DNA of 64,000 nucleotides, taken from NCBI GenBank assembly GCA_965208125.1, contig OZ242320.1, positions 608,001-672,000 on the forward strand. Direction: 5' to 3'. The position numbers were made by a program, and so were the translations under genes. Below, piece after piece: positions 25,351 to 39,338 of the stretch. The notes beneath the pieces were generated by a model. The model ran no database searches and was not told the DNA's origin. It saw only the letters and a program-made list of their open reading frames with translations. Position 1 is the first letter of the stretch; the number at the start of each line of letters is the position of its first letter. The stretch is from Candidatus Latescibacterota bacterium (GTDB lineage: Bacteria > Latescibacterota > UBA2968).

Positions 25351-26559
25351 TTAGCGACCACTTACATTTTTCTCTAACCGCAACCTCTTTGCCTCTGTGC
25401 GGATCTTATCCATCTCCATCTTCATCCGCACAATGCCCTCCCAATGCGTATAATCTGGCGAATGGTGATACGCCGCCTTAAATGTAGTCGCGTGATAAAA
25501 CTTGAACAACCTGAAAAACGCCTGCTCAATCTCCGATGTATTTTCGTACAACTGCTGCCCACCCAGTTCAAAAGCGTGTCCAACCACTGGATTGGCCGGA
25601 CGGTCTTCGGGCATGGGATCCAGCGCGTTTTCATCGTACAATGCCTTAATCACCGCATAAGACTCCGCAACCAGCGCGTCTGCCTCGCGCTTAATCGCAT
25701 CTGCGCGCTCCAGACTCTCGCGAGAAAATCGATTGGAATGGCACGGCGCACACACCTGCAACATCGCATTTCGATTCGCTTCAAACTCCTCTTTGGTCAA
25801 ACGTTTCATCGCCAGATGCGGCAAAAAATCCTCCTCGAGCACTGCCCCCGTAAACACCGCACCCAACCCGATATTTGCCACATGCCCGTGATCGCCATTG
25901 GGCATGTGGCACGTCACGCAACTCGGCGACTTCTCGGCATCTCTATCCGCATAATACAAAACCCCGTGAATACTCGTCTTATACGCCTCCATCACCGGAT
26001 GGTCCGGACCGCCGTGACAAACGGCACACGCCTCTGGCTCTCGCGCAAGCGCCGCGCTAAATTCATGACTCGGATGACAGGTGTTGCACCCCCCCACGCT
26101 GCCATCGGCAAACCGCGCGCCAATGCTGTGGCACCCCATACACCCCTCTTCTTGCATCGCGCGCGACTGCGCCAAAAAACGCGCATCCGACAACGCGGCC
26201 AATTCCGCATCGGCATGTCCGCTCTCTGCAAATGCCTCGACCTCTTCTGCGTGGCATTTACCACACATACCAGCCGATACCTGTCCCCGAACAGCAAAAA
26301 CCGTCTCGTGGTTTTCACCGTGACAATCCGCACACCCCACATTGGCTCGAAAATGGGCACTCTCGCGCCACTGTTTATCCATGCCCGGATCGATATTCCG
26401 ATGGCACCCTTCGCACGACTGGTCACTCTGAATACGCAACAAAAAACCCGGATGTGCAACAAACTGAACCGCCTCCTCCGGCTGCAACACGTAAAACACA
26501 CCCCAGACGCAACCCAGAGCCAGCACACCAACGCCAACAATTTTCATCCAGAGCTTCAC
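25351..26559 (-). CDS. HAO-family octaheme cytochrome c
   Basis: Eight CxxCH (CEGCH, CADCH, CGKCH, CMGCH, CNTCH, CAVCH, CVTCH, CAPCH), GPDHP..EAY..S.HG, H.SPDYTHWEG; N-terminal anchor. Confidence 0.85.
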   Translation of the reverse strand: MKLWMKIVGVGVLALGCVWGVFYVLQPEEAVQFVAHPGFLLRIQSDQSCEGCHRNIDPGMDKQWRESAHFRANVGCADCHGENHETVFAVRGQVSAGMCGKCHAEEVEAFAESGHADAELAALSDARFLAQSRAMQEEGCMGCHSIGARFADGSVGGCNTCHPSHEFSAALAREPEACAVCHGGPDHPVMEAYKTSIHGVLYYADRDAEKSPSCVTCHMPNGDHGHVANIGLGAVFTGAVLEEDFLPHLAMKRLTKEEFEANRNAMLQVCAPCHSNRFSRESLERADAIKREADALVAESYAVIKALYDENALDPMPEDRPANPVVGHAFELGGQQLYENTSEIEQAFFRLFKFYHATTFKAAYHHSPDYTHWEGIVRMKMEMDKIRTEAKRLRLEKNVSGR

Positions 26560-29315
26560 AATTCACGCCCCCCCAATCCTCGCAACAAATCGCGCGCCTG
26601 CACATTGCCCGGCTCGCGCGCAATCACACGCCGCAAAACCGCAATCGCACTATCTCGCTGCCCGCTTATGGCATAAGCCTGTCCCATAAAAAACTCCAAC
26701 CCCTGCGCTTCTGGCTCCAGCACCCACGCCTGCCGATACACAGACAGCGCACCTTCTAAATCGCCGCGCTCCTGTAAAACCGTACCCAACACCGTAAGCG
26801 CGGGCACATAAAAAGGATCGACAATCAATGCATCCAGCAGGTGGGATTCCGCTGCCTCCAAATCGCCCAGATCAGCGCGAATAAGCCCCTGCATCGCATA
26901 CACATCAGCGCGATTGGCATGATATTTTTTCGCAACCTCAAAATGCGGCAACGCATCTGCGAGCGCGCCCTGCACATAGACGCGGTGCCCAGCGGCAAAA
27001 GCCGAATCCGACTTTGCAATCATCACATCCCGCGCCCGCCCGCTCAACCCAAATAATCCCGTACCCGCATCCTCCATTTCCAACGCCCTGCGGTATGCCG
27101 CGCGTGCCAATGCCCAATCGCCCGACAGCGCGTGTACAGTCCCTTTTTCCACCCAATCGCCTATCGGCATCTCATCCCAGTCATAATCATCTCGCACCTC
27201 GCCATCCCCAGCCGAAAACGCCAACAACGCGAGTTGTCGAATCGCCGGTTTGTATCCCGGCGCAACCGCAAGTGCGCGGCGATAGGCTTCAATAGCACCT
27301 GCGCGATCCCCACTGCCCCATCGCGCATTGCCCACAGCAGTATGCAAAACGGGCGAACCATCGCGCACATCGTCAAAAGTGGCATCTGCATAGCGCCCGT
27401 GGTGCAATAGCAATGCACCTGTGCGCAACCGGGAAATCAAATCGCTCTTTCCATTCAGCAACTCCCTCATCACCTCAAAACGCTTCTGTTTTCCCTCCAA
27501 TCGCGCCAGATCTGTCGCGGTCTCCGGATGCCGGGGGTCTAACTTTGCCACAATCTCAAATTCTCGCCTCGCATCTTCAAAAAATCCCTGTGCCTCATAC
27601 ACCTGTCCCAAACTCTCGTGAAAGCCCGGATCGTCGCCCTGCACGCCATACACCACATCGCGATGCTCCTCAAGCGCCTTGCGAAACGCATCGCCCACGG
27701 CAGAACCATCTGGCAAATAGCCAATATCCATCAGCGCGAACGGCGCTTGCACCCGCACAATACGCGCCGAATCGGACAACGCATCCAAAAGCGCGGGCAA
27801 ACCGCGCACATCGCCCAAACGCCCCAGCGAAATCGCCGCTTTCATCCGCACCATCGCATGTGAATCACCCATCGCCTCAACCAGCGCTGGCACCGCACGC
27901 GCATCCCCCAAACCGCCCAGCAAAGACGCAGCCGTTGCGCGCCACACCGCACTCTCGCGCCCATCGTTTACCAGCTTCATCAGCGACGTTGCACCACCGC
28001 CCTTTTGCCCATCGGCAATCGCCGTTGTACGCGCCACAATCTCGTCCTGATAATCGCCATACCACTGCTTTGCCCACGACGAAGCCCACTGCGGGGACTT
28101 ATCGCCGTGACACTGATTGCACGCATTGGGCACGCCATTGACCACCGTATTTTCCGGCGCAGGAGACGCAATGCGGTGATCCGTCAGATTTTCCCCCGTC
28201 ACATAGTGATACGGCATGTGACATTGCACGCATTGATTGCCCACACTGCCCGCGCGGTGATGCCCATGCGCGACCGGATCGGCTGCGATATCACCATGAC
28301 ACGTCTCGCACAGCTCCACGCCATTTCGATCCGCCACCAGATCGACATCGCGCGCTGTTCCGTGCGCATCGTGACACGTCGTACACGTCAACTCGCCCTG
28401 GATATAACACGCACTCATCAAATGCAATGCCGCGGGATACAAATAAACTCGGGGCTGTCCATCGGGATAGAAGATCGCCGCGTCATCTGGCAACACAAGA
28501 GAATAATAATCGTAAAAATTCTCCCCCGGCAAATACCCGGTTGCCACAATCTCCTTGGCAGCATGGCACTGTGCACACACCTCAACAGACCGCTCCTTAT
28601 CCAGCGTCCGCAATGCCAACAAATGCAGTGGTGCACCGACCTGCCCGCGCGTCTCATCGTGTTTGCCCGACGGCCCATGGCACGCCTCGCAATCAATACT
28701 CAGACTCCCCACAGTTGTGCGATAAGTATGGGTAGGCACATCGTAATGCTTTTGCACCCGGCTGGCATGGCAATCAAAACAGTGAAAATTCCAGGTGCGC
28801 CCCGCATTCGTCCAATAATAATAATCTTCTCTCGCCAGAGGCCGCGACTGTTCCACCACACCTCCTTCTTGTGCATCGACCCAATCATTTGTCGCACCAT
28901 CGTGATACAGGGGCAACACCTGCCATCGCCCATCGGGAAAAGCCGTCAAATAAGCCTGATGCTGTCGCTTGCCAATCGCGTAATCCACGCGATATGTCCC
29001 CACTCGCCCATCCTCATCCTCAGTCTCCATATAATACGCACCACCCCTGCGCAACATACGCGAACGCACCCCGCCATACACATGGGACACATTGTCAAAA
29101 TCGCCCACAATCGTCGAATCACCCGGCACAGTCATAGCGACACTGTGCAAACTCTGTCGCCACTCGGCATACTTATCGGTATGGCAGATCGCGCACCGTT
29201 CCAACCCCGTAAACCCCGGCTCAGAAGCACGCACCAAATTCGGCACCTCGCGTTCTCGACTGCACGACGCGAATACCAGAATCATCCATAAAATGTGAAA
29301 TTTTCCGCACCGCAT
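26556..29315 (-). CDS. Multiheme (8x CxxCH, c554-like) cytochrome with HEAT and TPR repeats, probable lipoprotein
   Basis: CAICH, CFDCH, CEACH, CAQCH, CTTCH, CETCH, CVQCH, CNQCH; HEAT repeats (VR..AA..LG.LGD); C-terminal TPRs; LVFASC lipobox-like; start uncertain. Confidence 0.85.
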   Translation of the reverse strand: MRCGKFHILWMILVFASCSREREVPNLVRASEPGFTGLERCAICHTDKYAEWRQSLHSVAMTVPGDSTIVGDFDNVSHVYGGVRSRMLRRGGAYYMETEDEDGRVGTYRVDYAIGKRQHQAYLTAFPDGRWQVLPLYHDGATNDWVDAQEGGVVEQSRPLAREDYYYWTNAGRTWNFHCFDCHASRVQKHYDVPTHTYRTTVGSLSIDCEACHGPSGKHDETRGQVGAPLHLLALRTLDKERSVEVCAQCHAAKEIVATGYLPGENFYDYYSLVLPDDAAIFYPDGQPRVYLYPAALHLMSACYIQGELTCTTCHDAHGTARDVDLVADRNGVELCETCHGDIAADPVAHGHHRAGSVGNQCVQCHMPYHYVTGENLTDHRIASPAPENTVVNGVPNACNQCHGDKSPQWASSWAKQWYGDYQDEIVARTTAIADGQKGGGATSLMKLVNDGRESAVWRATAASLLGGLGDARAVPALVEAMGDSHAMVRMKAAISLGRLGDVRGLPALLDALSDSARIVRVQAPFALMDIGYLPDGSAVGDAFRKALEEHRDVVYGVQGDDPGFHESLGQVYEAQGFFEDARREFEIVAKLDPRHPETATDLARLEGKQKRFEVMRELLNGKSDLISRLRTGALLLHHGRYADATFDDVRDGSPVLHTAVGNARWGSGDRAGAIEAYRRALAVAPGYKPAIRQLALLAFSAGDGEVRDDYDWDEMPIGDWVEKGTVHALSGDWALARAAYRRALEMEDAGTGLFGLSGRARDVMIAKSDSAFAAGHRVYVQGALADALPHFEVAKKYHANRADVYAMQGLIRADLGDLEAAESHLLDALIVDPFYVPALTVLGTVLQERGDLEGALSVYRQAWVLEPEAQGLEFFMGQAYAISGQRDSAIAVLRRVIAREPGNVQARDLLRGLGGREL

Positions 29316-29408
29316 AACATGTCCTGTTAATGCGCTAATTAAAATATACAAACCGTCATCCCTACAAGAGCAACGGCCACCAATGCGATGACAATAGCAG
29401 TGTCGCGA

Positions 29409-30278
29409 CTAACGCGCCTGAACCTCTCCCCTCGCACACCGAAACCCAATGTGGGCAAATATTTCATAGGTATCAAAATCGTCGCGCGACATAGCCTGTT
29501 CTTCCATAATTAAAACCGTACTCCGCACAAATACGCGGATACTGGGTTGTGGTGAAAACCAGCTCCCGCCGCGCAACGTGCGATCTGGCCCATCTTCCAT
29601 ACCTGAATTTTGCAAATTCACCGGATTGTGCCTGGGACTATTTGCGTAATACGTATGCTGATATTCATCCCGCGTCCACTCCCACACATTACCCGCCATA
29701 TCCATCGCGCCATAAGGACTTGCACCATCCGGATAGCTACCCACAGGCATGGGACCCGAAATAGAATTGAAATTGCACAGCGATGTATTCGCAGGCTCAT
29801 TGCCCCAGGGGAACACGCGCCCATCCGTGCCTGCAGCGGCCAACTCCCATTGCGCTTCGCTCGGCAATTGCAAACCCGCCCACTGACAATAATCCCGCGC
29901 CTGAGACCACAAAACTCCCACCGCTGGCTGACTGGGTTGGTCAAATCCCTCTACTCGAAAGTACTGCGGAGGTTCACTTCCCGTGGCCTCCACATAAGCC
30001 AAATACTGCGCATTGGTCACCTCGTATTTATCGATATAAAATGCGTCGAGCATCACCTCGTGTGGCGGGCGCTCATTGGTAGGGCCATCGCTCGAACCCA
30101 TCGTAAAGGTGCTGACCGGAACAAAAACTTGCACATGCTCTGTGCCCGCAGGCGTGGTCACAACAGATTCTTCAATCACATATTCTGGATCCGTCACTTT
30201 GCCACAAGCCATGGTCAATACAAGTCCCAAAACGCCGAATCGATAAATCGTTTTTGGTATCATGACGTACCCCATCAT
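29409..30278 (-). CDS. FGE/SUMF1-family (NirV/PvdO-like) lipoprotein
   Basis: FTMGS, P.HEV.L..FYIDKYEVTN, LPSEAQWE.AA, DMAGNVWEW, RGGSW, IGFRCA; LTMAC lipobox; ATG overlaps the YcaO stop. Confidence 0.88.
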   Translation of the reverse strand: MMGYVMIPKTIYRFGVLGLVLTMACGKVTDPEYVIEESVVTTPAGTEHVQVFVPVSTFTMGSSDGPTNERPPHEVMLDAFYIDKYEVTNAQYLAYVEATGSEPPQYFRVEGFDQPSQPAVGVLWSQARDYCQWAGLQLPSEAQWELAAAGTDGRVFPWGNEPANTSLCNFNSISGPMPVGSYPDGASPYGAMDMAGNVWEWTRDEYQHTYYANSPRHNPVNLQNSGMEDGPDRTLRGGSWFSPQPSIRVFVRSTVLIMEEQAMSRDDFDTYEIFAHIGFRCARGEVQAR

Positions 30279-31285
30279 GTCCAAACAATATAATTGCCCG
30301 AATCCACCATAATGCGATGCACATACGTCTCGATCATCGCGTGGTTCCGCTCGTATTCTGAAGTCTTTAAACTGAAAGGCCGCAACACTGGAATTTGCAT
30401 CTCTGGATCTGTCCAATCTTGCACATAGACCGAAGAATTCATGCCGCTCAACACCACCTGAATATCGGTTATCAAATCATCCGTAAAATGATTGGGCAAA
30501 TCCCACAGCGCAATCTCGGCATTAAAAATCTGCAAATCAGATACAAACCGCGTCTTGTGACTCTGAACAGTCTCATTAAACGCCCGCTGCAACGCCACGC
30601 GCCCATCCAAATGCGTACACGTACGCACCAGAGGTCCCAAATCTTTGGGACACACCACCGCGTGAACCGTCGTCACCTTCTCATTCTCCCCCGGCACGGC
30701 CACAGCCAGCATCTTCTCTGCGACGCGAGGAGCAAAATCCGTCAAATTTGGATCGATAAATTGCCGGTGTTCCAATCCGGGCCAGTAAAAATGCCTCCCC
30801 ACATCCAGATGCTCGTGCATCTCCAACAAACCGTGAAACACGCACTCCAGCACAGTATTGCCCGCCGAAACGCCATTTGCCGAATCATTCAAATGCGGCA
30901 CATCCGACGCCTTCATATCGGTCGGCACGAGTTCGACATCAGAAGTCAACTCATAAATCGGAGTCTCTCGCCCGCTCGCCAGCGCGTCAAAAAACGAAAT
31001 GCGCTCGACCGCCTCTGCCATTGCCCCTGCCAGCACCTGCTGTTTGGAAAGCCCTTTGCCCATCGTGCGAAGCGCAATACCCTCCATCAGCGGCCCTTCG
31101 TATTTGCGAAACAGCGCCGACTGCACGTAATCCGTATAACAATCGGCAATCCACACCGTATTGTAAAACCGCCGCGCGCGCGTTTGAAATCGGCACTTTT
31201 TGGACAGCGCCTCCCCAAACCGCACAATGGTCTCCTCAAACGGAACCGTGCGATCGGCAATAACGATATGATGCGACTCACTCAT
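30275..31285 (-). CDS. YcaO-family ATP-dependent amide-activating enzyme (compact)
   Basis: GKG......AGAMAEAVER, NGVSAGNT..E...HGLLE..EH, H.D..VALQRAFNE..Q, D.T.P...IPV. Confidence 0.85.
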   Translation of the reverse strand: MSESHHIVIADRTVPFEETIVRFGEALSKKCRFQTRARRFYNTVWIADCYTDYVQSALFRKYEGPLMEGIALRTMGKGLSKQQVLAGAMAEAVERISFFDALASGRETPIYELTSDVELVPTDMKASDVPHLNDSANGVSAGNTVLECVFHGLLEMHEHLDVGRHFYWPGLEHRQFIDPNLTDFAPRVAEKMLAVAVPGENEKVTTVHAVVCPKDLGPLVRTCTHLDGRVALQRAFNETVQSHKTRFVSDLQIFNAEIALWDLPNHFTDDLITDIQVVLSGMNSSVYVQDWTDPEMQIPVLRPFSLKTSEYERNHAMIETYVHRIMVDSGNYIVWT

Positions 31286-32415
31286 TGCGCCCGTGCCCGA
31301 TTCATATCTTCAACCGCCTCGGCAAATCGTCCCATTTGCCGAAACGTCTCCGCGCGAAGTTCTCGCGCCCATCCATTTTCGGGATCGAGATCCAACGCCC
31401 GCGTAAAATCTGAAACCGCTGCCTCAAACTGCCCCAGCATCCGTCGGGACTCCCCGCGATTTGCCCAAACCCACGCGTCTCCGCCATCCAGCATCACCGC
31501 CCGATCAAAATCGACCAGCGACGCCTCGGGATCATTTTCCATCCGCAACGCAACGCCTCGCCCCATAAGCGCCCACAAATGATCGGGAAAAATCTCCAGC
31601 GCCTGTGTAAAATCGCGTATTGCTTCGGCACTTCGCCCCAATTGCCGCAACATATCACCCCGCGCGGCCAACAAATCCGGGTCGTCAGGTACGATAACGA
31701 GTGCGCGGTCAAAATCCAAAAGCGCGGCCTCCAATTGATCGCACTCTCGCAGCACCTCGCCCCGTCCGATCAACGCGCCCAGATGATCGGGCATCGCCTT
31801 CAGCGCCTCCCCAAACATCTCCATCGCGGCCTCAGCCTCACCAGCCTGTCGATAGACCTCCGCCCGTCCGGCAAACGCATCTGGATGCCCATTGCCCACA
31901 GCAATCGCCCGGTCAAAATCGCTCGCCGCCGCATCGCACTGCCCCAACTGCAACAACACGTGCCCGCGGCTGATCAGCGCGCCGAAATAATCTGCATCCA
32001 ACGCCAAAACCCGATTGAGATCCCCCAATGCCTCTTCAAACCGCCCCATCTCGCGCAGAGTCTCCCCCCGGCTGGCAAGTGCCTGCGTATTTTCCGGATC
32101 GAGCGCAACAGCCTTTCCAAAGCTATCTATCGCCGCATCAAACTGCCCCATCAACCCGCAGGCAATCGCGCGATTGCTCCACACCCAGGGATCATCTGGA
32201 GCCAGAGCGATTGCGCGGTCAAAATCTGCAACAGCCGCATCAAATCTCCCCAATTGCCCATAAGTAATCCCGCGCTGAACAAACACAACGGGATCGCAAT
32301 CTCGGATCGCAACAGCCGCATCAAAATCCGCAACAGCCGCTTTCAGATCGCCGCCATCGCGGTGCGCAATAGCGCGCTGAACCACAGCGTCAAAGTCATT
32401 TATAGATAGAGACAT
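31282..32415 (-). CDS. All-TPR protein (about 11 repeats)
   Basis: 34-aa periodic RG......G..EAA..DFDRA..L.P; stop overlaps the YcaO ATG. Confidence 0.9.
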   Translation of the reverse strand: MSLSINDFDAVVQRAIAHRDGGDLKAAVADFDAAVAIRDCDPVVFVQRGITYGQLGRFDAAVADFDRAIALAPDDPWVWSNRAIACGLMGQFDAAIDSFGKAVALDPENTQALASRGETLREMGRFEEALGDLNRVLALDADYFGALISRGHVLLQLGQCDAAASDFDRAIAVGNGHPDAFAGRAEVYRQAGEAEAAMEMFGEALKAMPDHLGALIGRGEVLRECDQLEAALLDFDRALVIVPDDPDLLAARGDMLRQLGRSAEAIRDFTQALEIFPDHLWALMGRGVALRMENDPEASLVDFDRAVMLDGGDAWVWANRGESRRMLGQFEAAVSDFTRALDLDPENGWARELRAETFRQMGRFAEAVEDMNRARAQ

Positions 32416-32533
32416 AGAAGAAAATAATGGGAACCACAAAACACCCGAAACGTCTCCACAATGTAGATAAACCAAACCCCAAAATCAAGCGCAAACCCCG
32501 TGACATTTTGCACGCGATTTAGTATATTACAGC

Positions 32534-32614: not shown

Positions 32615-32630
32615 CTTATGGAGGAACACC

Positions 32631-33941
32631 ATGAAACATTTGCAAATGCGTATTTTCTCTCTCGCCCTATTTCTGTGCTTATGCACAACAGCTTTTGCCC
32701 AACCTGGAGTGGGTGAAAAAGTAGGTGAATTTCAACTCCAGGCCACCGATGGCAGGTTTTACGGCGTCAATCATTCGAACAACACGGTATCCGTCCTCTT
32801 TTTTGTCGGCTACAACTGAGGGACTTGCATAGGGGCGGGTCCCGCCTTTGAACAAAATATCCACCAGCGCAACAAAGACAAAACCGGCGTACAGATCCTC
32901 ACACTGGACAGATATGACGGCAACCGCGCACAGGCAACATCCTATCTGACACAATCCAGCGTCACAACACCGCTGCTCACAAGTGCCTCTGGCGTCTCCA
33001 GGAACCTCGGCACCCGAAACGAAGATATCCTCGTCGTTGACCAGGAAGGCATCTTGCGCCTCAGGACCACTGCAATCGCCAGTGGCTCTCATGATCTGAT
33101 CAACGCACAAATCGACGCTCTTCTCAACAAAACGCCCGTTATCACCCTGTTCCCGCGAGAGCTTTACTTCGGCACAACCCTTGAAGTGGGGCAATCCAAA
33201 ACTATAGAATTTAAGATCGAAAATACTGGTGCAGGTCCCCTCGAAATCACCGGATACACGGCTCCTACAGGCATCACAATGGAGCCATCCTCACTGACCA
33301 TAGCCCCCGGCGAAAGCAAAACCGTACAAATCACCCTGACACCAACACAGGCCGGGACATTCTCGGGTAAAATCACCCTAAAACACGGCGAACAAAGTGT
33401 TGGCACCCTGGAAATCCCCTTTGCCAACCTCACCATCGAAGCGCCCCAACTCCCGGTCATTTCACTGGTTCAGGAAAATTTGAGCCTGGATGAAATCGAA
33501 GTGGGTAAAGACTTCACAACAACATTCGCCATCACAAATACTGGTACAGGTCCGCTCACCATCACAGACATCCAATCCAACATCGCGGGCATTGCATTTT
33601 CAGAAACCCAATTAACAGTGCCACCCGGCCAATCTCAGAATATCACAGTGACTTTCAATCCGCCAGCCGAAGGTCCCATCACCGGCACCATCGACATAAT
33701 CTCAGACGACCCGGAAAAAGCCTCAATCAGCCTGACCATCACCGGCTCGGCCATCTTCATCCCCGCTGATCCACGCACCGACTTCGACGGTTCGCGCACC
33801 ATTGACTTCTCGGACTTCCTCTTGTTCGTAAGTGCCTTTGGCACGGCCAATACGACCTTCGATCTCGACGGATCCGGCACTGTTGACTTCCCCGATTTTC
33901 TCATCTTTGTCGCAAACTTTGGGAAAACAATCAATTCCTGA
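32631..33941 (+). CDS. Probable secreted selenoprotein: redoxin (UxxC) + two Ig-like (ASH/choice-of-anchor D) domains + dockerin-like EF-hand pair
   Basis: ORFs 32631-32819 and 33054-33941 share a frame; reading through TGA 32817 gives VLFFVGYN-U-GTC...VQILTLD...ILVVDQEGILR (redoxin fold); DFDGSRTIDFSDFLLFVSAFG and DLDGSGTVDFPDFLIFVANFG at the C-terminus; GGAGG RBS. Confidence 0.85.
32825..32855 (+). promoter_or_regulatory. Bacterial SECIS-like stem-loop
   Basis: AGGGGCGG-GUC-CCGCCUUU at +12..+30 after the UGA; GGU is codon +7, the same spacing as in the E. coli fdhF SECIS as I recall it. Confidence 0.7.
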
Positions 33942-33945
33942 AAAA

Positions 33946-33971
33946 CGGGCGGGTTTAAAACCCGCCCCTAC
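33946..33971. repeat. GTAG-type REP-like palindrome
   Basis: CGGGCGGGTTT-A-AAACCCGCCC-CTAC. Confidence 0.7.
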
Positions 33972-34025
33972 ATCATTATATATAACCTCCTGCGAGATCA
34001 TCGGTGTTAATCCGTGTTGCTTTCC

Positions 34026-34720: not shown

Positions 34721-36535
34721 ATGAAACGCCCTCTCGTCATCGCACTCTTTCTCGCCCTCCCACTTCGCCTCTGGGCAAATCCCCTCCAAACAGGTGCTGA
34801 AGAGGTTCCATTCAGTATCGGCGACACCCTCAATGATTTCGCCCTTGCCGACCTCAATGGCTCGCCCGTTACCCTCAGTGATTTATCTCAGAACCGCGCA
34901 CTCGTCATCATCTTCAGTTCCGTCGTCTGCCCTGCCTCGCTGAAATACGACATACACCGCACACAACTTCACGAACAATATGCCCCCAAAGGCGTACACT
35001 TGATCTCTGTAAATGCCAACTTTAACGAAACGGACAGAGACATCAAAGAACACTACGCCCAGAACCCCGTACCCTTCGATGTCCTGCGCGACCCGCACAA
35101 TAAACTCGCCGATCACCTCGGCGCGACCCACACCCCCCATGCCTTTCTCTTTGACGCCCAGCGCCGCCTGCGCTACAAGGGCGAAATCGACAACGGCTGG
35201 GGCATCCCCGAAGACACGACCTCGCGCGGTTTATGGGATGCCCTCGATGCACTGCTCGCCAACCGCGAAATTGTCAACACCAACCTGCCCAGTTTTGGCT
35301 GTGAAATCAGACGCATGCCCCGGCCAACAACTGTCGCGAACACCTCTATCCCAACATTTTATCGCGACATCCTGCCCCTGCTCCAAAACCGCTGTCAGAA
35401 CTGTCATCGCCCCGGCGGCATCGGGCGCGTACCCTTTTTCGACTACACAGAAGTACTCGCCTGGGCCTATCAGATGCGCGACTCCATCGAAGCCCGCATC
35501 ATGCCGCCCTGGAAAGCACGCCCCGAATACGGCGACTTCAAAAATTCCCGCAGACTCACAAATACCGAAATTCACACCTTCGCGCAATGGGTCAACAACG
35601 GCATGCCAGAGGGCAATCCCTCCAACCAACCCCAACCCATTGCATTTTCCAAAAGCTGGACCCTGGGCACACCCGACCTGACCCTCGAACCCGAAGCACC
35701 CTATCCACTCGAAGCTGTAGGGCGCGATGAATACCGCTGCTTTGTCTTGCCCACAAAACAGGACACGAGCAACTACGTATCGGCCATTGAAGTCCTGCCC
35801 GGAGAACGCGAAGTCGTCCACCACGTCAGCGTGTACATCGACATCTCTGGCAAAGCGAGCCTGCAACAGGAAAATTCGCCCTCGCCGGGATACCCATGCT
35901 TTGGCGGCATTGGCGTGCCCATCTACGAATCTCTGGGCGGTTGGGCACCCGGCAACACCCCCTTTGTCCTTCCAGATGGCACGGGCCGCGATTTACCGCC
36001 CAACAGCGACATCATCCTTCAGATCCACTATCACAAAATTGGTCGCGCCGTAAAAGATCATTCTCGACTGGGCATCTACTTTGCCAAAAAACCCGTACAA
36101 AAACAGCTCAGAGAAGAAGTCATCAACAGCCGCTTGCTCTTCATTCCACCCAACATCAAACGACACAGAGTAACCGGAGCACTCACCATCACCCGCGACC
36201 AGCACCTGCTCGGCATCTTGCCCCACATGCACCTGCTCGGCACAGAAATGAAAATAACCGCAACCTATCCCGACGGCACGCAACAACCCTTAATATGGGT
36301 CAAACCCTGGGACTTTAACTGGCAAGAAACCTACGTGTACAAAATACCCATCGCACTCCCGCGCGGCACACGCATCGCGCTCGAAGCCTTTTACGACAAC
36401 TCTGCCGACAATCCCCGAAATCCCAACAATCCCCCCAGGCTGGTGCGCTGGGGCGAAAAATCAACCGACGAAATGTGTACTGCATTTCTCTATGTCACGC
36501 ACGATGATGAAAACTTAACAACAGGTAAGAGGTGA
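34721..36535 (+). CDS. Exported redoxin + c-heme + copper type II ascorbate-dependent monooxygenase-like fusion
   Basis: Signal peptide; CPAS redoxin with ATHTP and FGC; CQNCH; VVHH, QIHYH, PHMH, WDFNWQ, DEMC. Confidence 0.82.
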   Translation: MKRPLVIALFLALPLRLWANPLQTGAEEVPFSIGDTLNDFALADLNGSPVTLSDLSQNRALVIIFSSVVCPASLKYDIHRTQLHEQYAPKGVHLISVNANFNETDRDIKEHYAQNPVPFDVLRDPHNKLADHLGATHTPHAFLFDAQRRLRYKGEIDNGWGIPEDTTSRGLWDALDALLANREIVNTNLPSFGCEIRRMPRPTTVANTSIPTFYRDILPLLQNRCQNCHRPGGIGRVPFFDYTEVLAWAYQMRDSIEARIMPPWKARPEYGDFKNSRRLTNTEIHTFAQWVNNGMPEGNPSNQPQPIAFSKSWTLGTPDLTLEPEAPYPLEAVGRDEYRCFVLPTKQDTSNYVSAIEVLPGEREVVHHVSVYIDISGKASLQQENSPSPGYPCFGGIGVPIYESLGGWAPGNTPFVLPDGTGRDLPPNSDIILQIHYHKIGRAVKDHSRLGIYFAKKPVQKQLREEVINSRLLFIPPNIKRHRVTGALTITRDQHLLGILPHMHLLGTEMKITATYPDGTQQPLIWVKPWDFNWQETYVYKIPIALPRGTRIALEAFYDNSADNPRNPNNPPRLVRWGEKSTDEMCTAFLYVTHDDENLTTGKR

Positions 36536-36536
36536 C

Positions 36537-38132
36537 ATGAAAAAACTCCTCAAACTCAGCATCCTCATCACCCTGATCCACGCGCCCATCCACGCCCAAT
36601 GGAATATCGCCGTATTGCCACATGAAAACACATTGGGCGACCCGCAGTGGAATTGGCTCTCCGCAGCCATTGTCGAAGGATATATCAACGCCTATTACCA
36701 TGTGCCCAAAATACATGCTGTTGACGAAGAATATCTGCGCCACAAACTCGGAGACACGCCAGTAAGCTCCTCTGACCTTGCACAAAAATTGAACATCCAC
36801 CTGATTTTAAGTGGGCGTTACGACATTGTGGGGTCCCGCATCCAAATCGAAACCGACATGCTTCAGGCAACCACAGGCGAAGTCATCGAAACCTTTGCGG
36901 GTCAGGCATCCATCTCTACTCCGCTCGACGCCATATTGCCCGTACTCTACGCCATTGCAAATCAGTTAAACGTGACCCTGACACCCCATGAAAAAACCCG
37001 CCTGCAAATCCCCATGTTTCACGATCCACAAGCTCTTCACATCGCAACCGAAAGCATGGTGGCACTGTATCGGGCGCTGCGACAATCTCCCATTGACGAC
37101 GCTCTGCTTACACAGGCTGAAGGCGGTCTAAAACGCGCCGTACAACACGATGTCAAAAGTGCGATGCCCCACTACTATCTCGGCCGCATACACGAAACGC
37201 GCAACAAAATAACAGAAGCGGAAAACGCCTATCGCAACGCCCTCAAAATCGACTTTGAACACGTTGCCGCGCGCTATCGCCTTGCCCTGATCCTCAAAAA
37301 ACGCGGACACACAGAAGAAGCCATGAGCGAACTCGAACAGGCCATCCAGCAGTCGCCCTTAAACCCCGATATTCAGACAGCCCTATCCAGCATGTTTTTT
37401 AATCAATACGCCCAAACCTTTGAAACCATCACCACCCAACTGCGCCAGGCCATCCAGGCCAACCCAAATGATCCCATTGCCTGTTATGAACTCGCCAATG
37501 CTTATAACGAACTCGACCGCATCGACGAAGCCACAAATTATTACCATCAAGCCCTACAACGCGATTCCACACTCGCCGATGCACATTTCAAACTCGGCCT
37601 CATTGCACACCGCAAAGGGGAACACGAAAAAGCCATTGACCACCTTCAAAAAGCCGCAGCGCACAACACCCAATTCACCCGCGTCCATTTCCGCCTCGGC
37701 ACCATCTTCCACCTTATCGAGCACTACGACGCGGCAATCAAAGCCTTTTCAAAAGCTATCGAAGTCGAACCCAATTACGTCATCCCGCGCTATCACCTCG
37801 GCCTGAGCTATCTCGCAAACGCGCAGCCAGACAGCGCTTATGAAGCCTTCCAGAAATACGCCGAACTCACCTCAGACGACCACCGCCCGTATTTCCAAAT
37901 GGCCGAGATCGCCCGGCAAAAAGGCGAACATGAACGCGCAATAGACGGGTATATACGCGCAATCGCCATCAGCCCTGTTCACGTACCCTCACACCTCCGC
38001 CTGGGCTATCTCCATGCCGAACAACAACGCTTTGACCTCGCTGTCCAGCAATTGCAAACTGTACTGCGCCTACAACCCGATCACCCGGAGGCCGAGAAAA
38101 TCCTCGCCGACATCCAGAAATGGACACCATGA
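36537..38132 (+). CDS. Exported TolB-N/CsgG-like domain + TPR protein
   Basis: Signal peptide, IAVLP.EN......WLS, then multiple TPRs. Confidence 0.78.
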   Translation: MKKLLKLSILITLIHAPIHAQWNIAVLPHENTLGDPQWNWLSAAIVEGYINAYYHVPKIHAVDEEYLRHKLGDTPVSSSDLAQKLNIHLILSGRYDIVGSRIQIETDMLQATTGEVIETFAGQASISTPLDAILPVLYAIANQLNVTLTPHEKTRLQIPMFHDPQALHIATESMVALYRALRQSPIDDALLTQAEGGLKRAVQHDVKSAMPHYYLGRIHETRNKITEAENAYRNALKIDFEHVAARYRLALILKKRGHTEEAMSELEQAIQQSPLNPDIQTALSSMFFNQYAQTFETITTQLRQAIQANPNDPIACYELANAYNELDRIDEATNYYHQALQRDSTLADAHFKLGLIAHRKGEHEKAIDHLQKAAAHNTQFTRVHFRLGTIFHLIEHYDAAIKAFSKAIEVEPNYVIPRYHLGLSYLANAQPDSAYEAFQKYAELTSDDHRPYFQMAEIARQKGEHERAIDGYIRAIAISPVHVPSHLRLGYLHAEQQRFDLAVQQLQTVLRLQPDHPEAEKILADIQKWTP

Positions 38133-38842
38133 ACCTGCTCAAAAAATGTGGTGCCGAATTTATCGGCGCATTTGCCATCGTCTTTGGCGGATGTGGTGCC
38201 GTCGCCATCAACCAGCTATCCGAAGGCGCCATCACCCATGTGGGCATTGCAACATCCTTTGGCCTCATCGTCATGACAATGGTTTACGCCACCGGGCACA
38301 TCTCGGGCGCGCACTTCAATCCCGCCGTCACCACCGCCTTTGCCTGCACCCGTCACTTTCCCAAACGCGAAATCCTGCCCTACATCGCAGCCCAATGCCT
38401 CGGAGCCATCGCCGCCAGCGGCATTCACCTGTGGTCTCTTACGCCCATCTTAAAATCAAAACACCCACAGCAGACCCTCAACCTGGGTGTCACACAACCG
38501 ATGGACAATCTTTTTACCACAGCTTTTATCTGGGAATTCTTACTCACCTTCTTCTTAATGCTCGTCATCATGGCCGTTGCCACAGACTATCGCGCCACGG
38601 GTCAAGCCGCCGGCCTGGCCATCGGCGGCACCATCTGGTTTGAAGCTATGTTTGCCGGTCCGCTATGCGGAGCCTCCATGAATCCAGCGCGCAGCCTTGG
38701 CCCCGCTCTGGCCGCTGGTGATTGGACCCATTTTCCCGCTTACGTATTCGGCCCCATTCTCGGCGCAACTGCAGGCGCGTTTTTTTACGAATTCATCCGC
38801 TGCCATTCCGAACCCGGCACCGATGTCAAAGGTTGTTGTTAA
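38129..38842 (+). CDS. MIP-family aquaporin (AqpS-like, probable arsenite channel)
   Basis: SGAHFNPAVT and GASMNPARS; C-terminal GCC; adjacent to arsC. Confidence 0.9.
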   Translation: MNLLKKCGAEFIGAFAIVFGGCGAVAINQLSEGAITHVGIATSFGLIVMTMVYATGHISGAHFNPAVTTAFACTRHFPKREILPYIAAQCLGAIAASGIHLWSLTPILKSKHPQQTLNLGVTQPMDNLFTTAFIWEFLLTFFLMLVIMAVATDYRATGQAAGLAIGGTIWFEAMFAGPLCGASMNPARSLGPALAAGDWTHFPAYVFGPILGATAGAFFYEFIRCHSEPGTDVKGCC

Positions 38843-38878
38843 AAGCGGTTAGCACAAACTAAGCAGCATCTAAATGCT

Positions 38879-38915
38879 TGTAATTCTCAATTTTTAATTT
38901 TTAATTTCTAATTCT
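38879..38915. repeat. AT-rich heptamer tandem repeat
   Basis: TAATTCTC AATTTTT AATTTTT AATTTCT AATTCT. Confidence 0.55.
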
Positions 38916-39338
38916 ATGAACCGCGTACTCATCCTCTGCACGGGCAACTCCTGCCGCAGCCAGATGGCGCAAGGACTATTTAGCCATCTGAGCAATGGCA
39001 CTTACGACGCCTATAGCGCAGGTGTCAGCCCTACAACAGTCAATCCACTCGCCATTCTCGCCATGCGTGAAATCGGCATCGACATATCCCACCACACATC
39101 CGACAGCATCGAACAATATCTCAATCGAAACTTTGATCTCGTCATCACCGTTTGCGACAACGCAAACGAAAATTGTCCGATCTTCCCGGGCGCCAAAAAC
39201 ACGCGACACTGGCCCTTTGAAGACCCCGCTGATGCCAAAGGTACAGAAGAAGAACGAATGCGCGTATTCCGCAAAGTGCGCGACAAAATACGCGACAAAA
39301 TCGCAAACTTCCTCCACATAAAAAAAGCCTCGAGATAA
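38916..39338 (+). CDS. arsC: Thioredoxin-dependent arsenate reductase (LMW-PTP fold)
   Basis: CTGNSCRSQMA, TVCD.A.E.CP.FP, HWPFEDP. Confidence 0.92.
   Translation: MNRVLILCTGNSCRSQMAQGLFSHLSNGTYDAYSAGVSPTTVNPLAILAMREIGIDISHHTSDSIEQYLNRNFDLVITVCDNANENCPIFPGAKNTRHWPFEDPADAKGTEEERMRVFRKVRDKIRDKIANFLHIKKASR

Follow-up and report, generated by a model that had tools for sequence, protein, structure and literature searches.

Selenoproteins with a peroxiredoxin-like fold are already catalogued, and both PF00578 Prx-like proteins with UxxC or UxxU motifs and PF08534 redoxins with a UxxC motif are listed as predicted families in the accessible text of PMC13188914 and PMC9312934. Among their thioredoxin-fold relatives, the cis-proline that precedes strand 3 is better conserved in thioredoxins and cytochrome-maturation proteins than the CxxC motif itself, and according to the consulted sections of PMC2757866 this proline likely aids the binding of polypeptide substrates and may prevent metal binding, its position being taken by Arg in peroxiredoxins; the loop that carries it closely approaches the CxxC motif (PMC2665069, in the part available). 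With respect to cohesin-dockerin systems, a cohesin scaffoldin bearing a type IX secretion (T9SS) C-terminal domain (CTD) has been inferred in Ca. Stygibacter of the Cloacimonadota (available text of PMC8542988), so that the pairing of cohesin and CTD has a precedent as a prediction, and Farag et al. 2017 identified cellulosome-affiliated enzymes in Latescibacteria, according to the portion of PMC7081726 consulted. Here we describe a Latescibacterota gene that brings elements of these systems together.

The gene lies in a window of 64,000 nucleotides from a Candidatus Latescibacterota bacterium (contig OZ242320.1). Preceded at a distance of 6 nt by a Shine-Dalgarno-like GGAGG (32620..32624, forward strand), its frame runs on the forward strand from ATG 32631 to the TGA at 33939-33941 (32631..33941) and encodes 436 residues plus the stop, with a sole internal TGA at 32817-32819 (forward strand) that corresponds to residue 63 in the context F-V-G-Y-N-U-G-T-C. 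The encoded layout comprises a signal peptide, a redoxin of AhpC-TSA/TlpA fold, two Ig-like repeats and a dockerin-like tail. An earlier note on this DNA had proposed that the open reading frame track split one gene into halves sharing a frame, that the single TGA fell on the first position of a CxxC motif and that 78 codons were left without a called ORF. Each of these points holds: the frame is continuous, U63 opens the U-G-T-C motif, and the sole ORF of at least 70 aa in this frame begins at TTG 33054, leaving codons 64-141 uncovered. The same note had anticipated that standard pipelines would annotate fragments, and all 26 database relatives within the 240-765 aa bracket are indeed truncated downstream pieces, 295-322 aa in length, that begin 3' of the TGA, two of them named 'choice-of-anchor D domain-containing protein'. 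The signal peptide (32631..32699, forward strand), recognized by eye from a basic start, a hydrophobic core and A-F-A followed by Q24, is conserved throughout 20 rows from the same genus, and 83 of 86 homologues have a hydrophobic segment 5' of the U/C position; export through the inner membrane is thus very likely.

To the question of how the internal TGA is decoded, homologues offer the most direct evidence. The comparison drew on 81 loci that were chosen rather than sampled at random (best hits, five near-full-length rows free of stops, one TAA row and a spread of distant members), yielding 89 domain copies and 86 distinct homologues. The first active-site codon is TGA in 80 of these 86 and a Cys codon (TGT/TGC) in the other six, the second active-site Cys is present in 86/86, and neither Trp nor any other residue besides Sec and Cys occurs at the U63 site among them, as the earlier note's proposed search for Cys-aligned homologues required. 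One of the Cys copies (L111) has a stop two codons upstream of its Cys and may be a pseudogene. The TGA also keeps its exact position in each of the 19 same-genus orthologues with sequence at this codon, which rules out the sequencing error that the note had considered. The genome carries a complete selenocysteine machinery, with selA (E 5e-148), selB (E 3e-118) and selD all above cut-off and a tRNA-Sec gene (selC) at 70.1 bits; its selD has a TGA of its own. Across the phylum, the redoxin domain was found in 106 of 168 genomes, and selA in 103 of those 106; of the other three, two are fragmented MAGs and one is a weak hit. The domain match is absent from all five genomes of family f4 that lack selA.

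Substitution patterns among 16 same-genus orthologues point the same way. The pN/pS ratio amounts to 0.34 over the uncalled codons 74-141, compared to 0.22 on the 5' side of the TGA and 0.24-0.33 over the remainder of the gene, values that indicate purifying selection on the uncalled codons and on both sides of the TGA. Codons 64-73 have a pS of 0.13 versus 0.21-0.36 elsewhere, with synonymous variation at 4/9 codons compared to 150/251 elsewhere, and the 10-codon stretch starting at codon 65 ranks 7th lowest of 402 for synonymous change, suggesting a weak additional synonymous constraint in this segment.

The competing explanation is that the TGA is a true stop or is recoded in some other way, in which case the gene would be a pseudogene or a pair of genes, or the genetic code a variant one. 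No stop codon is commoner than TGA in this genome (788 of 1910 long ORFs), as this explanation would have it, and a different hairpin becomes more stable when folding starts at the UGA (see below). The same high usage, however, excludes a changed genetic code, and a true stop is hard to reconcile with a TGA that is fixed at the catalytic Cys position in four families and interchanges with Cys, with purifying selection 5' and 3' of it, with co-occurrence with selA, or with a terminal stop that itself varies (TAA in 12 and TGA in 8 of 20). We consider this explanation very improbable, and these comparisons argue that TGA 32817 is almost certainly read through as selenocysteine. Read-through at the terminal TGA was also considered and rejected, since that stop varies and the palindrome following it is a dispersed repeat. 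This palindrome (33947..33972, forward strand) lies directly after the stop, is REP-like, has 26 genomic copies at up to 3 mismatches and is not conserved, orthologues carrying other palindromes at the same place; it is not part of the recoding signal.

In a few genomes a Sec copy lies beside a Cys copy as tandem paralogues (L050/L107 in G036, L105 in G082 and L106 in G079), and the Cys copy is possibly a backup tied to selenium availability. In the four runs analysed out of 21 (three RNA libraries and one DNA run), small-share runs being left aside, contigs of related strains cover most of the gene; contigs from RNA libraries are no proof that the gene is transcribed. No difference falls at the TGA among 40 of the 240 rows of differences between these contigs and the gene. 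The runs are labelled as sponge, a label that applies to the related strains.

The earlier note had also placed a hairpin at +12..+30 after the TGA, and folding recovers it as a bacterial SECIS-like element (32830..32850, forward strand) in which 32830-32838 pairs with 32842-32850 around a GUC loop at 32839-32841. Its energy of -11.1 kcal/mol (z -1.94, p 0.05 versus synonymous recodings) is borderline for a single gene, and a rival overlapping hairpin (32820-32843, -16 kcal/mol) is obtained when the fold is started at the UGA, with z of -2.3 over 44 nt and -1.0 over 64 nt. At the family level the hairpin signal is clear: against synonymous recodings, the interval +10..+42 of the 80 TGA genes has a mean of -10.0 kcal/mol and a z of -1.9, with p<0.05 in 37/80, compared to -6.95 kcal/mol, z -0.77 and 1/6 in the Cys genes and to -5.24 kcal/mol, z -0.41 and 11/80 in a downstream control interval of the TGA genes, although the genes are related and the tests consequently not independent. 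The stem is built from differing sequences in different families. A loose genome-wide scan for a TGA near Cys followed by a hairpin returned 421 rows, mostly chance, which was too much noise to yield a selenoproteome, and a hairpin alone therefore proves nothing.

The redoxin domain (32700..33140, forward strand) contains the U63-G-T-C66 motif. AhpC-TSA (PF00578) matches it with 27.7 bits as an isolated domain (cut-off 26) and 24.3 bits in the full-length scan, 70 of 71 family members match PF00578 at E<=0.01, and no NCBIfam model matches the target domain at that threshold. The UxxC motif in an AhpC/TSA-like protein, put forward in the earlier note as a known context for Sec, is established insofar as PF00578 UxxC selenoproteins are catalogued in the available text of PMC13188914 and PMC9312934. 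With the catalogued PF00578 and PF08534 selenoproteins the target shares the AhpC-TSA match, a UxxC motif with Sec first, a SECIS element just 3' of the UGA and Cys homologues; in contrast to them, as far as their descriptions allow comparison, it is exported, carries an Ig stalk and a dockerin (or, in relatives, T9SS) tail and lacks the cis-proline.

The predicted structure of the domain (pLDDT 94.4) is a thioredoxin fold of TlpA/ResA type with TlpA-type extensions. Fold searches rank first the uncharacterized Bacteroides thetaiotaomicron protein of PDB 2LS5 (Z 19.7, rmsd 2.0 over 146 aligned residues), with DsbE (Z 17.6) and ResA (Z 17.1) also among the closest, BCP peroxiredoxins at Z 16.2 and Dio3 39th at Z 13.2. 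TlpA, ResA, DsbE and 2LS5 thus share with the target a fold (Z 17-19.7), an active site spaced by two residues and an extracytoplasmic location; the target differs in having Sec for the first Cys and Glu for the cis-proline. The ResA model matches 60 of 71 members, far below its cut-off (scores seen, from Cys relatives, reach at most 61.5 against 170 bits).

The site of the cis-proline, located six residues back from the Asp of the hairpin, is occupied by Glu131 in the target and by Pro in none of the 86 homologues (E39, D18, H13, Q6, S3, N3, T2, G1, A1), nor does a Pro occur within two residues on either side. Arg is likewise absent from this position in all 86. The target therefore departs both from AhpC/BCP peroxiredoxins, defined by PxxxTxxC plus Arg where it has U-G-T-C plus Glu, and from TlpA/ResA/DsbE proteins, defined by a cis-proline before strand 3 where it has Glu131. 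A profile search of 1.84 billion representatives retrieved 162 proteins at E<=1e-30, and among the best 150 of these 162 the family Gly and the D-x-W motif are shared by 133 domains in 128 proteins, probably of FCB-group origin. The cis-proline site is Asp in 122 of these 133 domains and Pro in 26 of the 28 other domains from the same best 150. Like the target, these unnamed 'YDRL' redoxins have G-x-x-C-x-x-C and D-x-W-[DN]-G motifs, an acid at the cis-proline site and export signals; unlike it, they have Cys instead of Sec and a T9SS type A tail (87/128) or a lipid anchor, with a dockerin in only 3/128. In a quick tree built from 148 columns and 81 rows, among them 23 of the 71 Latescibacterota rows and 22 sampled YDRL rows, a branch with SH-aLRT 90 (not starred) has the Latescibacterota and Cys 'YDRL' proteins together on one side. 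The shared Gly and D-x-W motif, the acidic site and this branch indicate a distinct and apparently unnamed redoxin subfamily that includes the Sec forms.

For such a domain, a role as redox catalyst is probable. We judged it improbable that the protein is instead an exported metal binder, a scavenger or detoxifier in which U63, C66 and the Glu, Asp or His at the cis-proline site ligate a soft metal (Cu, Hg or Zn): the spacing is CxxC and not the CxxxC of Sco, 16 of 86 homologues have other residues at the site, and Sec in UxxC motifs is usually redox-active. Still less probable is a reductive dehalogenase of deiodinase-like type that would attack halogenated aromatics from the sponge host. The Y-D-R-L loop of the family aligns with the P-E-R-L of bacterial deiodinase-like selenoproteins (hhalign probability 96.9-97.7), the Dio3 pocket is lined by Tyr257-Phe258-Glu259-Arg260 (PMC7506546, in the part available), related strains occur in sponge metagenomes, and the deiodinase-like selenoproteins (PF00837) share with the target a Trx/Prx-like fold, an N-terminal Sec and an acid at the cis-proline site. 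Against this, PF00837 misses the target and picks another gene in the same genome, Dio3 comes as far down as 39th in the fold search, the motif is UxxC with a resolving Cys rather than U-P-P-F, the target lacks the omega-loop insertion together with its His and has Asp and not Arg after the Glu, and the tree support for joining the family with deiodinase-like proteins is only 85.

Downstream of the redoxin, two Ig-like repeats of the ASH/choice-of-anchor D type (33141..33446 and 33453..33755, forward strand, limits approximate) match DUF1573 and choice-of-anchor D profiles, in agreement with the two repeats of the earlier note. They are followed by a Phe-rich dockerin-like module of two Ca-binding loop-helix repeats (33765..33938, forward strand). 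The paired EF-hand character that the note had claimed for this tail stands, its profile finding 2Y3N_B as best dockerin (E 1.4e-9), on par with a calmodulin fusion (8.9e-10); the dockerin identity is less direct, in that Pfam Dockerin_1 (PF00404) hits 37/47 of the homologous tails at E<=0.01 yet misses the tail of the target, which scores as EF-hand. The module is not special to this gene. The tail profile finds 91 ORFs in the genome, in which it is C-terminal in 41, N-terminal in 35 and internal in 15, and it is therefore not a strictly C-terminal signal; one of the 91 also has a T9SS-type tail according to an HMM of our own.

The distribution of tails follows lineage. Dockerin tails end the homologues in 40/43 cases in family f1, 18/19 in f2 and 5/5 in f3 (63/67 together), the four f1-f3 exceptions comprising two cases at contig ends and two copies that look broken, whereas f4 homologues end in T9SS-type tails in 17/19 cases, with one dockerin and one W-G-x-x-K end. 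According to an HMM of our own, seeded with 26 proteins above the TIGR04183 cut-off (26 of 33 scanned), the 128 wider relatives carry a T9SS-like tail in 87 cases; they have a dockerin in 3, a W-G-x-x-K end in 2 and no tail in 36, of which 17 are lipoprotein-like by a simple pattern. The short W-G-x-x-K end, replacing CTD or dockerin in L126 (G153) and P0035, is possibly a third sorting tag. No T9SS C-terminal sorting domain was found on the target, where the dockerin occupies the place of the sorting tail of its relatives. Given the T9SS tails, lipoprotein signals and dockerins found across relatives, the redoxin family is predicted to be exported and mostly addressed to the outer surface.

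The earlier note had suggested display on the cell surface or on a cohesin-type scaffold and a search for cohesin-like partners. Such partners are present, four ORFs of the genome combining a cohesin-like domain with a CTD; the genome also has SprA, a C25 peptidase that carries a CTD and 18 PorV-family genes. A small protein with a cohesin and a T9SS tail is the likely partner, rather than a cellulosome scaffold. Two candidate adaptors consist of signal peptide, cohesin and T9SS CTD (genome 4832047-4832880, forward strand, and 1729281-1730141, reverse strand). Pfam at 1e-5 finds only FlgD_ig on the adaptor, and a search of PDB sequences with the adaptor cohesin alignment gave nothing at E<=0.1; its identity as a cohesin was settled by fold search, in which the top 20 matches are all cohesins (Z 14.4-10.2) and the next non-cohesin scores 9.5. 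A complex prediction for tail and adaptor scored 0.02 against a mark of 0.32, with a cohesin construct lacking its last strand, and weighs neither for nor against binding.

Of the 52 other genomes of the order, 51 carry the small adaptor at E<=1e-33, compared to a best value of 2e-17 in f3 and f4. Dockerin candidates range from 29 to 157 per genome in f1-f3 and do not exceed 36 in f4. Both contrasts are inflated by distance from the query. Dockerins are present in 52/76 and cohesin-like domains in 51/76 of the f4 genomes, and no close adaptor accompanies the dockerin tails of f3. Clostridial cellulosomes (dockerin of PDB 2Y3N) and Ca. Stygibacter (PMC8542988, in the text available) resemble this arrangement in the duplicated Ca-binding loop-helix tail and in the cohesin-fold partner with CTD; here, in contrast, the adaptors are small with a single cohesin, the tagged proteins number 91, the cargo is a redox selenoprotein and not a hydrolase, and the binding is predicted. 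Other T9SS-related genes in the genome include three adjacent large genes with T9SS CTDs (2266935-2280478), two of which end in dockerin-cohesin-CTD, and four large ORFs (4774371-4795594) whose CTD-like domain lies not at the C-terminus but close to the N-terminus, around residues 126-226. We know of no T9SS export of a cargo that lacks its own CTD.

The main alternative to surface display is a periplasmic disulfide reductase or isomerase of TlpA/ResA type, fed by DsbD/CcdA and serving exported dockerin-tagged proteins, with the tail as an envelope tether. The periplasm supplies electrons for thiol-disulfide enzymes, the closest solved folds and profiles are of TlpA, ResA and DsbE types, both active-site residues are kept in 86/86, and the target has no T9SS tail of its own. 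This alternative nevertheless appears unlikely, because the cis-proline that thioredoxins and cytochrome-maturation proteins keep (PMC2757866, in the sections consulted) is absent in 86/86, relatives carry T9SS tails at the same position, and nine ordinary Pro-bearing TlpA-like genes, counted by eye, are already present in the genome. Surface display by docking on a cohesin-CTD protein is predicted with slightly better than even odds, the location being otherwise periplasmic.

The genomic neighbourhood gives little guidance as to function. A divergent TPR gene lies upstream in 11/11 loci (L092-L102). Downstream, the 10/10 loci with sequence share a hypothetical gene and another that is AhpC-TSA/Cu-monooxygenase-like. 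Such conservation is ordinary synteny within the genus. An operon link was rejected for now, the upstream gene being divergent and the downstream genes without functional clue, and no neighbour indicating a substrate or reductant was found at the target and same-genus loci. In the window, the syntenic downstream gene (34721-36535, forward strand) encodes an exported-looking protein with AhpC-TSA and copper type II ascorbate-dependent monooxygenase-like domains, and the divergent stretch 25351-32475 (reverse strand) encodes a pair of multiheme c-type cytochromes, of which one bears HEAT and TPR repeats, as well as FGE-sulfatase-like, YcaO-like and TPR proteins. An aquaporin (MIP) gene adjoins an LMWPc/ArsC-type gene at 38120-39338 (forward strand), an adjacency that suggests arsenic handling.

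The genome contains two paralogues of the target, one at 862254 with 14 Ig repeats, the other at 4826969 with regions that resemble LRRs and proteases by eye. It also has a deiodinase-like selenoprotein gene with in-frame TGA (1038764-1039243, forward strand; PF00837 E 5e-27, F-G-S-F-T-U-P-P-F), TGA-bearing copies of which occur in many genomes of the class. Further likely selenoprotein TGAs belong to a UGC-type TlpA next to selD/selC (1007099, reverse strand), a UxxC Prx-like protein (5058587, reverse), an ArsC-like protein (4708952, reverse), a BCP-type T-x-x-U peroxiredoxin (2419460-2419999, reverse), a Prx-like protein with U and no second Cys (3782844-3783611, forward) and a long ORF with C-U (1098735, forward).

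Based on these analyses, we propose the following mechanism. Conservation suggests that SelB bound to the hairpin would insert selenocysteine at UGA 63, giving one 436-aa protein that the signal peptide would carry across the inner membrane. Its Ca-binding dockerin would probably attach to the cohesin of a T9SS-tailed partner, for which a small signal-cohesin-CTD protein is the likeliest candidate and which may carry the redoxin out or hold it at the surface, the two Ig repeats serving as a putative spacer. Judging from the fold, the UxxC site would cycle between a selenolate and a Se-S bond. Since the residue that aids the binding of protein substrates, the cis-proline, is exchanged for an acidic one, substrates might be small oxidants or non-standard extracellular compounds rather than protein disulfides in the manner of TlpA/ResA; the variation at this site in Latescibacterota (E39, D18, H13, Q6 and 10 others) counts against this reading, and a non-classical surface reductase is our best guess. 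As a whole, this combination of Sec redoxin, dockerin-cohesin docking, surface display and small or non-standard substrates has about an even chance of being right. A broader reading, which we offer tentatively and hold doubtful as a joint claim, is that the dockerin of the order took over the job of the type IX tail, so that some 90 tail-less proteins would be exported or anchored via signal-cohesin-CTD adaptors, one of these cargoes being a surface selenoenzyme whose redoxin family is unnamed and widespread, has an acid for the cis-proline and would act, where symbiont and sponge meet, on small molecules (peroxides, metals or halogen species).

The broad class to which the protein belongs, PF00578 UxxC selenoproteins, is already catalogued, as noted above. 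The main text of PMC13188914, in the version available, contains none of the words 'dockerin', 'secreted' and 'Latescibacter', and a fusion of this kind does not appear in the fusion section of the GOS study (PMC2398784), the part consulted. Literature searches by title and start of abstract, with subscription papers and supplements outside their scope, found no Latescibacter selenoprotein of this kind; with the same exclusions, nothing related emerged for Latescibacter and dockerin and no paper for type IX secretion with thioredoxin and selenoprotein. For cohesin, dockerin and T9SS the only relevant paper found was PMC8542988, seen in its available text. Farag et al. 2017 may already describe these Latescibacterota dockerins, to go by the accessible portion of PMC7081726, and the supplements of the selenoprotein catalogues could list this family. 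Relative to the literature searched, the absence of the cis-proline from all homologues (0/86) and the swap of tails by lineage are new.

These findings have several implications. An exported bacterial selenoenzyme is a category that was not found in the accessible main text of the selenoprotein catalogues PMC13188914 and PMC9312934. The correction of annotation spans the whole class, the domain being present in 106/168 genomes of the phylum and its database proteins starting after the UGA. The proline-less 'YDRL' redoxins include numerous Cys proteins, and these can be expressed more easily than the Sec form. Finally, the swap between T9SS tail and dockerin on one and the same domain constitutes natural evidence that a dockerin can replace a T9SS sorting signal.
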